DNA of 63,145 nt, taken from IMG/VR virus record IMGVR_UViG_3300020381_000001; one strand, written 5' to 3'. This document shows, piece by piece, positions 29,752 to 60,743 of the stretch; positions within the stretch are counted from its first letter, which is position 1, and each line of letters opens with the position of its first letter. Position numbers and translations under genes: made by a program. Under the pieces are notes generated by a model. The model did not search any database, was not told the origin of the DNA, and was given only the letters and a program-made list of their open reading frames with translations. This stretch comes from an uncultured virus (IMG/VR IMGVR_UViG_3300020381_000001) (Duplodnaviria; Heunggongvirae; Uroviricota; Caudoviricetes).

Positions 29752-29831
29752 GCATTTCTTTTTGTTAAGATATCCTGACATAGGTATAAATTTTTTGATA
29801 GATAATAATGAGAAATATGGAGGCAATGCTT

Positions 29832-29984
29832 ATGCACAATTCGATATCATTTAACAGTTTAAATTCATGGGTTCCTTTCAACTCATCTAATTCAGATCCA
29901 ATAGATGATTATTTTGAATGTATTGTTGAATGTAGAGACGGAGATAAATCATGTGCATTAGAGTGTAGAGCACTTCTAGAATAG
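29832..29984 (+). CDS. 50-aa four-cysteine microprotein (not in the ORF track)
   Basis: GGAGG RBS; MHNSISFN...DYFECIVECRDGDKSCALECRALLE; followed by its own terminator. Confidence 0.7.
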   Translation: MHNSISFNSLNSWVPFNSSNSDPIDDYFECIVECRDGDKSCALECRALLE

Positions 29985-30005
29985 GAGTAAACAAATGAAT
30001 CCTTA

Positions 30006-30040
30006 GAAAAAGGGGGGGGTTTACCACCCTTCTTTTTTTT
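30006..30040 (+). terminator. Rho-independent terminator
   Basis: G-rich/C-rich hairpin followed by T8. Confidence 0.8.
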
Positions 30041-30063
30041 GTCTTTTATGGTTAAATAGTATT

Positions 30064-30110
30064 GGATGCCGAAAGGATCCACATTTAACACTCGCTTACT
30101 AAGGAGAACT
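30064..30110 (+). promoter_or_regulatory. Candidate ROSE-like RNA thermometer in the hsp20 5' UTR
   Basis: GAAA-capped hairpin, then CUCGCUU-ACU-AAGGAG pairing the SD with a bulged G. Confidence 0.55.
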
Positions 30111-30542
30111 ATGAACTTACAAAGATATCACTCTGCAAATTTACCAGAGTTGATGAAAATAATTTCAAAGAACGGTATAGGTATGGACGATTACTTAGAC
30201 CGATTTTTTAATTCTTACGAAACCACAACAAACTATCCACCTTACAATTTAATTCAGGTAAATAATGTTGAGTCTATGCTTGAGATTGCTCTTGCAGGAT
30301 TCACTAAAAAAGAACTTAAAGTTTATACTGAATATGGAAAACTTATCGTTGAAGGACAAAAAGAAACTAAGGAGACAGAATCCGAGTATGTCCATCAGGG
30401 ACTGGCTCAAAGATCTTTCTCAAGAGCATGGACACTCTCAGATGATGTTGAAGTCAGGGATGTCTCATTTAAAGATGGACTTCTTACCGTCAAATTGGGT
30501 AAGATAGTACCAGACCATCATGCTCGTAAGGACTACCTCTAA
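30111..30542 (+). CDS. hsp20: Small heat-shock protein
   Basis: NYPPYNL, EIALAGF, HQGLAQRSF and DGLLTVKL motifs; AAGGAG RBS before ATG 30111. Confidence 0.95.
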   Translation: MNLQRYHSANLPELMKIISKNGIGMDDYLDRFFNSYETTTNYPPYNLIQVNNVESMLEIALAGFTKKELKVYTEYGKLIVEGQKETKETESEYVHQGLAQRSFSRAWTLSDDVEVRDVSFKDGLLTVKLGKIVPDHHARKDYL

Positions 30543-30568
30543 ATATAATTGAGTTCGAGATGGAACTT

Positions 30569-30606
30569 AGGGATCTTGACGATCCCTTTTTTTATGGTAT
30601 AATATA
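30569..30606 (+). repeat. 38-bp terminator/promoter cassette, copy 1
   Basis: AGGGATCTTGACGATCCCTTTTTTTATGGTATAATATA, identical to 31645-31682. Confidence 0.95.
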
Positions 30607-30662
30607 TGTGTTAGTCAAGTTTCGACGAAAATTAACACTTAAGTTATTACTAAGAGGTTATT

Positions 30663-31655
30663 ATGCCAAAATTTAGAAGGTTACCTTCAGAAAACTCCTG
30701 TCCTAAAGTGGATTGGTTTACTCATTTAGATCGTCCAAAAGGAAGAACTTATAAATGCATTAGACGTGAAGTTATTAATTTAGATCATATTGAAAGACAT
30801 AATGAAAATGGTCAAATAGTAAATCTTGCTCGTCAATTAGGAACAGATAAAGAAAATTGTTTATTGATTGCAAATAATATTAAAGTTAATGGGGTATTAC
30901 TCGATGCTCAACCCCCTTTTATTAGCACTGAAAATGTTCTTTTTGATGGGTTTACTAGATTTGATGCATTTAAATTACTTGGAATTACACATTGGGTTTA
31001 CAATGTTGTAGAACCTAAGAAAGGATTTACTTGGGAAGATGTGAGAGATGAAATTGGATTAGGTGCAAATAATCATCCTCCATCTAAATCTGCTTCAGAA
31101 AAAGATTTTGAAAGAAGACTTTGTTATTGGATATCATTACAAGATAAAACTCCTACTCATGGTGCTTGTATAGATTGGATTAACAATATTCCTAATTCAT
31201 TTACTGATGAAAGAATTGCTAAAATTGCGAGAAATTCTCTTAATACCAATGCTACTAAAAATAGCATGGAATCTCTAGAAGCACCAGATGTTATTCGAAA
31301 AACAAATGAATTGGTAAATTTAAATGAAAAGACTAAAGTAATACCAGTTAATATTTCTGGTAATAAAACATACTTTCATCGTGTTGCCTTTGAAAAAATT
31401 AATTCTATTTGTAATAAAAAAGTATCTGATACTTATATGGTAGGATATACTAAAAATATTTCAGCAGAAGACGTTGCTGAAGTTAGAGAGAACGGACTTG
31501 AATATGCTGAGAGGATAAATGAAAATTTTGAAAATGTTTTTCAAGAACGTTTAAAAAAAGGAGAATCCTTTAAATTAATAGATATCAAAGCTTTTGCACC
31601 ACAAATTATTGGAGTAGAGGATGGTTTAGTTGATATAGATAAAAAGGGATCTTGA
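30663..31655 (+). CDS. ParB/Srx-like N-terminal domain protein
   Basis: IANNIKVNG...QPP......LFDGFTR pattern; GAGG RBS. Confidence 0.6.
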   Translation: MPKFRRLPSENSCPKVDWFTHLDRPKGRTYKCIRREVINLDHIERHNENGQIVNLARQLGTDKENCLLIANNIKVNGVLLDAQPPFISTENVLFDGFTRFDAFKLLGITHWVYNVVEPKKGFTWEDVRDEIGLGANNHPPSKSASEKDFERRLCYWISLQDKTPTHGACIDWINNIPNSFTDERIAKIARNSLNTNATKNSMESLEAPDVIRKTNELVNLNEKTKVIPVNISGNKTYFHRVAFEKINSICNKKVSDTYMVGYTKNISAEDVAEVRENGLEYAERINENFENVFQERLKKGESFKLIDIKAFAPQIIGVEDGLVDIDKKGS

Positions 31656-60547: not shown

Positions 60548-60553
60548 ATATTT

Positions 60554-60743
60554 GTTGGACGCAACATAGGGAGTGACTGAATAAACTTACTGGCATAGTG
60601 CTGGTTAAGGTGATGAGACACAGGTGGTGCTGCTGCGAAAGCAGAATCGACTTACCAGTCGGGTCTCAGGCAAAAACGTATTTACTCTGTAGTAATGCCC
60701 GTTTTTTGTTGGTACACAGGAATCCAACCTCCCCCCTTTTTTT
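60554..60743 (+). ncRNA. Large structured RNA, probably the manA RNA motif
   Basis: GC-rich ~190 nt intergenic region. Stems GTTG/CAAC, TGAGAC/GTCTCA, CTGC-GAAA-GCAG, CGACT/AGTCG, GGCAT/ATGCC and GTTGG/CCAAC; upstream of talC. Family name is from recall. Confidence 0.65.

Follow-up and report, generated by a model that had tools for sequence, protein, structure and literature searches.

RNA thermometers of the ROSE type carry a bulged G opposite the Shine–Dalgarno (SD) sequence, and marginal stability is a hallmark of thermometers. In the ibpA leaders of Pseudomonas, as the relevant sections of one study describe them, there are two hairpins, a U(U/C)GCU motif is imperfectly paired with the SD in hairpin II and the AUG is free (PMC3669281). 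The same sections state that on heating hairpin II melts, hairpin I remains closed and translation is regulated, that hairpin II alone suffices for this regulation, and that mutations stabilizing hairpin II, including deletion of a single G (G39), abolish induction (PMC3669281). Here we describe a leader of comparable build upstream of hsp20, a small heat-shock gene in the 63,145-nucleotide (nt) sequence of an uncultured Caudoviricetes virus (IMG/VR record IMGVR_UViG_3300020381_000001; the whole stretch analysed is called the window below). We consider it fairly likely that the 47-nt leader of the hsp20 mRNA, with its two hairpins, belongs to the short ROSE type and gates translation thermally.

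T4-like cyanophages are among the most abundant marine viruses. The hsp20 gene is one of the 25 core genes common to all 16 T4-like cyanophages compared (PMC3037559). The first-pass annotation of the window knew of no thermometer described for cyanophage hsp20, and the full-text literature that we searched, with most subscription journals outside it, nowhere described a thermometer or ROSE element for phage hsp20. The words 'promoter' and 'untranslated' are absent from a paper on cyanophage small heat-shock proteins (sHSPs; PMC3827213), as are 'UTR' and 'thermometer' from an in vitro study of the S-ShM2 sHSP (PMC5028025). A 2024 review, in its passage on the subject, treats condition-responsive phage RNA structure, temperature included, as still a matter of speculation (PMC10884466). 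If true, our reading would give the first ROSE-type element described in a virus and a molecular handle on temperature or host-stress effects in cyanophage infection, relevant to warming oceans.

A conserved two-hairpin leader on hsp20

From hairpin 1 to the hsp20 ATG the leader of the window measures 47 nt (Table 1). The first-pass annotation had described a GAAA-capped 5′ hairpin and, just before the hsp20 ATG, pairing of UCGCU with the SD around a bulged G; both hairpins lie where it placed them and both are present in the minimum-energy fold of the leader (RNAfold). In hairpin 2, the anti-SD UCGCU (30092–30096) pairs with the SD AAGGAG (30101–30106), with G30094 bulged and ACU as the loop, and 4 nt separate the hairpin from the ATG. 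An outer helix of the first fold (30056–30060 with 30108–30112) was dropped because it uses promoter bases that are probably not transcribed. When the leader is folded without the promoter, the start codon is unpaired at 30–50 °C, and a weak downstream helix touches it at 5–25 °C.

We compared 246 viral loci, namely the 80 best IMG/VR matches to each of three Hsp20 queries (those of the window, S-SKS1 and RB11-B; more than 1,400 candidate stretches in total) and six named phages (S-SKS1, S-PRM1, S-CAM9, P-HM1, RB11-B and P-SSM2). The proteins of the sampled loci are 54–100% identical to the window's Hsp20. Exclusion of 11 loci with less than 90 nt upstream left 235 leaders, and the 234 with a parsed hairpin 1 comprise 128 distinct transcribed leaders. 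The hairpin parsers demand pairing, so that complete pairing is partly built in, and the variation is the informative part.

The anti-SD motif recurs throughout, a check that the first-pass annotation had called for: U(U/C)GCU lies 18–25 nt before the ATG and is followed by GGAG in all 235 leaders (as UCGCU in all but three loci, which have UUGCU). In every one of them hairpin 2 parses as 5–8 bp, leaves the G of UYGCU bulged and holds the SD in its 3′ arm. Its four core pairs are invariant, as would be expected of the SD and its partner. Elsewhere the hairpin varies, with 28 loop sequences of 3–5 nt, an outer pair changed from C–G to G–C in the GUCGCUU/GAGGAC form, an inner pair changed once from U–A to A–U and three A–U pairs gained in the single UUGCU form. 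The bulged G is kept and the helix is never perfect in 235 of 235 leaders, which, on this comparison, suggests selection for marginal stability.

Hairpin 1 is built as stem, bulged G, CC, loop, GG and stem in 234 of the 235 leaders, and the sole exception (L074) has one apical pair fewer. The covariation that the first-pass annotation regarded as a check on its proposal is found here: two-sided changes occur at each of the four stem pairs adjoining the bulge, and the compensating stem types include GGAU/GUCC, UGUC/GACA, GAAU/GUUC, GUAC/GUAC, GGUU/GACC and GAUC/GAUC. The loops are stable tetraloops (UUCG in 119, GAAA in 64 and GUAA in 30), with swaps between UUCG and GNRA. As far as the alignment can tell, hairpin 1 is a stable, covarying 5′ stem-loop. 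The spacer between the hairpins is variable in sequence and length, and leaders measure 45–55 nt among relatives. A third hairpin, on the 5′ side, is present in 32 of 234 relatives, whose leaders resemble classical ROSE elements in hairpin number; this extra GC-rich hairpin (GUCAGAGG...CCUUUGAC type) stands between a promoter-like box and hairpin 1, for example in L183, L186, L193 and L211.

A covariance model was built from 150 distinct leaders, with one window-identical row and one near-duplicate omitted. On the 63-kb window it gave one match (30052–30116, 65.5 bits), and it gave one match in each of 95 out of 95 sources (at least three edits apart), always the hsp20 leader. On the model-fitted alignment, paired cells reached 98.9% (94.6% in shuffles), two-sided changes numbered 32 cells (5.5 expected) and covariation was 0.164 (0.093 in shuffles); none of 500 shuffles reached any of these values, and sliding the partners by one to three columns gave pairing of at most 66%. 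Comparison of the aligned relatives indicates that the leader forms a genuine RNA structure, strongly conserved, in which the SD is buried. Given that the leader is kept in related phages, chaperone output is probably set at translation.

When the leader was compared with all Rfam families, ROSE_3 (RF02523) was the only sense-strand match, with both hairpins aligned (18.0 bits; E-value 0.91 on 1.5 kb and 0.061 on 101 nt), and neither ROSE (RF00435) nor ROSE_2 (RF01832) matched at E up to 10 on the same two stretches. As a positive control, the Pseudomonas carbonaria ibpA leader scored 64.6 bits with ROSE_3. The ROSE-like character proposed in the first-pass annotation is supported by this sole match and by a build shared with the E. 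coli and Pseudomonas ibpA leaders.

Predicted control of hsp20 translation

Strong SDs are rare in this phage, yet that of hsp20 never varies: an SD-like 4-mer occurs at 18 of 87 plus-strand open reading frames (ORFs; at least 70 amino acids), and AGGAG or GGAGG at 6 of 87. The hsp20 SD is predicted to be unpaired with a probability of 0.04, 0.09 and 0.19 at 15, 25 and 37 °C, and the value of 0.04 would rank second lowest among 20 SD-bearing starts (median 0.40 at 15 °C). For hairpin 2 alone, nearest-neighbour prediction gives a ΔG of −3.7, −2.5 and −1.1 kcal/mol at the same three temperatures. Across the 235 leaders, hairpin 2 has a median ΔG at 37 °C of −1.5 kcal/mol (range −4.2 to −0.7), and ΔG reaches zero at a median of 49 °C. 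A hairpin of this predicted weakness may be a thermometer tuned some 20 °C colder, suiting hosts that live at about 10–30 °C.

In the mechanism that we propose, the hsp20 mRNA would start at or just before hairpin 1, which would guard the 5′ end of the mRNA and assist the folding of hairpin 2. In the cool, the weak hairpin 2 would shield the SD from the 30S subunit. Warming, or any other opening of hairpin 2, would then expose the SD and raise Hsp20 levels without new transcription.

Several points weigh against thermal gating. The fold of the single leader is no better than chance (−11.1 kcal/mol, z −1.48; 16 of 200 shuffles fold equally well), so that the structure was decided by comparison among relatives. 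In that comparison the leaders are related and the alignment leans to the model, which means that the shuffle figures overstate independence; SD conservation alone would also partly give the constancy of the four core pairs of hairpin 2. The ROSE_3 score of 18.0 bits in the window is below the 43-bit gathering score of that family, as are the scores of the 6 of 20 relatives that it matches (19.9–27.9 bits), and in the other 14 of 20 it gave no match at E up to 10. The comparison with Rfam ROSE models that the first-pass annotation asked for gave a sub-threshold match to one of the three families. By sequence and predicted structure the leader has every feature of the ROSE-like class, but its score falls short of the Rfam cut-off.

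The energetics point the same way. The phage hairpin 2 is predicted to be far weaker than validated ones, for which the same calculation gives −4.1 kcal/mol and 68 °C (E. coli) and −5.5 kcal/mol and 80 °C (P. carbonaria). On this crude scale hairpin 2 may be largely open already at 20 °C, and it may be too weak to repress alone, in which case a protein would be needed. The whole-leader ensemble keeps the SD mostly paired even at 50 °C and has no sharp switch. The temperature response is argued from likeness to known elements, and the start of the mRNA at or just before hairpin 1 is a probable placement read from the sequence.

An upstream box and the start of the transcript

An AT-rich box precedes the leader. 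Its core TAAWTA (found as TATAAATA, as TATAATTA or, in the window, as GTTAAATA) lies 4–6 nt ahead of hairpin 1 at 196 of the 234 loci. At 32 others the box stands before the extra 5′ hairpin instead, and its distance to that first hairpin is unchanged. Because the box distance follows the first hairpin, it supports a transcription start at the base of that hairpin. No such box was found in four loci of the S-PRM1/S-CAM9 type and two others of the 234.

The first-pass annotation had called this box late-promoter-like. The box is present and conserved, but 'late' is doubtful, because hsp20 of P-HM2, which has the same leader (56.7 bits with the covariance model), is entered as a middle gene in both light and dark in supplementary file 6 of Thompson et al. 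2016 (PMC5082946). The box is about as good a match to the T4 late consensus as to a sigma-70 −10 element. Within the window it does not recur beyond chance: TATAAATA has 9 sites (7.7 expected), all nine exact sites being on the plus strand, TWAAWTAGTA has 5 (1.9 expected; 6 of 100 shuffles as high) and GGTTAAATA occurs once. In four marine RNA libraries examined over 29800–30700, contigs of relatives cover hsp20, although assembled contigs cannot show a 5′ end; one loose contig end carries a relative's leader, and the stretch 29986–30047, uncovered by RNA contigs, carries no weight.

Origin of the gene and its leader

In NCBIfam the phage Hsp20 matches IbpA (82.5 bits) and IbpB (79.1 bits) best, in neither case reaching the cut-off. 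We scanned 185,579 species genomes for hsp20-like loci with one peptide pattern and took the best 80 loci. Among these, the nearest genome loci after two phage-like contigs of metagenome-assembled genomes (MAGs) were gamma- and alpha-proteobacterial genes of 29–41% identity, and none of the 80 was cyanobacterial. Cyanophage sHSPs were placed beside bacterial class A, and not beside those of the host, in the relevant part of Maaroufi and Tanguay 2013 (PMC3827213). As the protein is IbpA-like and the leader ibpA-like, gene and leader were probably acquired together from a proteobacterial ibpA-type locus, which would make this a gene and an RNA switch that crossed phyla together.

Two MAGs labelled as a Thermoplasmata archaeon and as Paceibacterota (L249 and L250) carry a cyanophage-type hsp20 (62–63% identity), L249 also with the full leader (77 bits); these genes are most likely phage DNA binned or scaffolded into MAGs. 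In Serratia, Budvicia and Leminorella (L315, L298, L302 and L295, around 773–865), a two-hairpin leader with CUCGCUU...AAGGAG stands downstream of the ibpA-like match. The gene behind it starts with MR and is probably ibpB, and the cyanophage model scores this leader at 22–28 bits.

The leader also occurs in a second, distant clade of viral hsp20 genes. One marine contig of 2 kb (L275), assigned to an archaeal MAG by binning, encodes an Hsp20 35% identical to that of the window, behind a leader with two hairpins as in the window, in the UUGCU form. Its relatives in IMG/VR number 24 (L329–L352) and lie on AT-rich viral contigs of up to 340 kb. CUUGCU and then AGGAG precede the ATG in all 24, the cyanophage covariance model matches 21 of the 24 at E up to 10, and in several of these leaders the bulged-G hairpin is the minimum-energy fold. 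The hsp20 gene of this clade adjoins a small protease-adaptor-like gene in one contig and a peroxiredoxin gene in another.

Alternative explanations

A serious possibility, which we nevertheless hold only tentatively, is self-regulation as in IbpA: free Hsp20 would repress its own leader, and repression would lift as the protein is drawn onto aggregates. The leader would then sense protein damage instead of, or besides, temperature. As the relevant sections of one study report, the ibpA 5′ untranslated region (UTR) mediates translational self-repression by IbpA in E. coli, Cedecea and Vibrio, for which R93, R97 and K98 are needed (PMC10474464). Equivalents of R93 and R97 are kept in all six aligned phage Hsp20 sequences (LAQ-R-SF/NF-x-R), the weakness of the phage hairpin makes an added repressor plausible, and hairpin 1, bulged G included, is more conserved in sequence than a mere stabilizer would need. 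The R93 arginine is widely conserved in alpha-crystallin domains, which makes the presence of its equivalent here of little weight. The six phage proteins carry A, S, V or E at the position of K98, and the E. coli K98A variant no longer repressed, according to the same sections (PMC10474464). By analogy, binding of phage Hsp20 to its own leader would be a live alternative or addition to the thermometer. A wider proposal, which we regard as doubtful, joins the two in a dual sensor: a ROSE thermometer roughly 20 °C colder than enteric ones would be combined with a binding site for free phage Hsp20, so that chaperone synthesis during infection follows the temperature of the sea as well as how much misfolded protein the dying host carries, and the element, together with its gene, would have passed from proteobacteria to cyanobacterial phages and at least one other marine virus lineage. 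Unlikely, in our view, is a leader that senses nothing, in which hairpin 1 stabilizes the mRNA while translation is held by hairpin 2 at a constant low rate that came with the gene. The predicted melting is gradual and without a switch, hairpin 2 is weak at ocean temperatures, and 5′ stem-loops have been suggested, in a passage of the Pseudomonas study, to protect mRNAs (PMC3669281). Such a leader would hardly need the strictly kept bulge and the imperfect helix seen in all relatives, and deletion of the corresponding G in Pseudomonas abolished induction, as reported there (PMC3669281).

Two other readings place the constraint outside a regulatory RNA. It is highly improbable that the conserved stretch acts at the DNA level as a Pho box for host PhoB, the reading proposed for S-PM2d hsp20. 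Table 2 of Rihtman et al. 2024 lists a putative Pho box, ATTCAAACTCGCTTAAATA, at −31 of S-PM2d130 (hsp20), and the same work has this gene rising under phosphate limitation; the electrophoretic mobility shift assay fragments it describes are 004, 133, 134 and 136, the hsp20 site not being among them (PMC10976474). We rejected the Pho box because its TTAA half falls in the variable hairpin 2 loop (28 sequences) and is missing from the window (loop ACU); the invariant part is UCGCU and GGAG, not the Pho-box repeats (PyTTAAPyPyT/A). There is next to no chance that the leader is a coding N-terminal extension of Hsp20, as some records annotate it. The frame in the window is open from an ATG at 30066, and hsp20 is annotated from inside or before the leader in P-HM1 and P-HM2. 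Of 150 distinct leaders, however, 79 contain an in-frame stop within 60 nt and no more than 34 contain an in-frame ATG that stays open, the lengths of 45–55 nt span all residues modulo 3 (counts 60, 78 and 96) and the covariation is of the RNA type; the in-frame stops and the lengths in all three frames led us to reject the coding reading. The annotated starts in P-HM1 (L084 534) and P-HM2 (L353 358), a GTG inside hairpin 1 or an ATG before the box, add what the alignment indicates is a spurious N-terminal extension, the aligned start being the ATG after the SD. The leader in this way corrects hsp20 start codons in some phage records. We also considered a RegA operator, given that regA lies upstream of hsp20 in the window, P-HM1, P-HM2 and RB11-B, but regA is not a neighbour of hsp20 in P-SSM2 or S-SKS1.

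Genomic context

The neighbourhood upstream of hsp20 is a replication-gene block of the T4-like cyanophage kind (Dam methylase, a gp62-like clamp loader and regA; Pfam). Between regA and the first terminator lies a small ORF with four cysteines within its last 23 residues and no Pfam match, and the terminator hairpin is the end of this upstream transcription unit. A near-consensus sigma-70-type promoter overlaps the terminator after hsp20 and precedes a 330-aa ORF at 30663, which has no Pfam match either. The one Rfam family to exceed its gathering score in the window is manA, found as a full-length RNA motif; P-SSM2 has a partial manA motif upstream of purL (L086 1–129). No tRNA genes were found in the window.

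Table 1 Features of the hsp20 locus and other elements of the window
Feature	Position	Strand	Evidence
Small ORF, 58 aa	29808..29984	+	
Intrinsic-terminator-like hairpin with T run	30006..30040	+	Terminator scan, sequence
AT-rich promoter-like box TTAAATAG, TGG before it	30052..30059	+	Sequence; core TAAWTA conserved among relatives
Hairpin 1: GGAU-G-CC / GAAA / GG-AUCC, six pairs, G30068 bulged	30064..30080	+	RNAfold, relatives
Spacer between hairpins, A/C-rich, unpaired, 10 nt	30081..30090	+	Alignment, folds
Hairpin 2: CUC-G-CUU / ACU / AAGGAG	30091..30106	+	RNAfold, relatives
hsp20, 143 aa, IbpA-like small heat-shock protein (ATG 30111–30113)	30111..30542	+	Pfam HSP20, E 5e-14
Terminator-like hairpin closing the monocistronic hsp20 unit	30569..30587	+	Terminator scan
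Near-consensus sigma-70-type promoter: TTGACG, 16 nt, TATAAT, TG before −10	30576..30603	+	11/12 matches
manA RNA motif, full-length	60553..60738	+	Rfam RF01745, 189 bits

Comparison with known RNA thermometers

If it gates translation as we propose, the 47-nt leader is a candidate switch for use in cyanobacteria at low temperature. Its likeness to the two-hairpin elements of Pseudomonas is close. The P. carbonaria ibpA leader has a GGAU-G-CC...GG-GUCC hairpin 1 with a bulged G, like that of the phage, and its hairpin 2, CUCGCUGA...UCAGGAG (CUCGCU...AGGAG), is likewise similar; an unpaired spacer, a free AUG and an IbpA-type gene downstream are common to both. The phage differs in a shorter and weaker hairpin 2 (6 pairs, and a ΔG at 37 °C of about −1.5 as against −5.5 kcal/mol), in the 4-nt UUCG or GNRA loop of hairpin 1, in an AT-rich phage box where Pseudomonas ibpA has a sigma-32 promoter, which the phage lacks, and in the carrier, a virus of cyanobacteria. 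The SD hairpin of E. coli ibpA (CUCGCUG-AUUU-CAGGAG) has the same six-pair, bulged-G build, and E. coli IbpA and the phage Hsp20 belong to the same protein family, with the R93 and R97 equivalents kept and that of K98 missing in the phage. The E. coli ibpA leader as a whole is reportedly longer and has more hairpins than that of the phage.

A phage mRNA with a temperature-sensitive structure that governs translation is familiar from lambda cIII. There, two alternative folds involve the whole leader, translation is favoured at physiological temperature and the gene does not encode a chaperone; the Rfam family Lambda_thermo gave no match in the leader stretches searched. The hsp17 thermometer of Synechocystis and the phage leader are both short 5′ UTR structures on a small heat-shock gene in a cyanobacterial cell. 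The hsp17 type is said to be a single hairpin with an internal loop and without the UYGCU motif; the phage did not copy this device of its host. Cyanobacterial hsp17-type thermometers are named in the cited sections of the Pseudomonas study (PMC3669281). The phage element lies in the 5′ UTR of a small heat-shock gene and has two hairpins with the SD in the 3′-proximal one, in keeping with the ROSE-like class, whose members have two to four (PMC3669281). By these comparisons the leader would belong to that known class, with a new kind of carrier, a virus, and a plausible sensing function.

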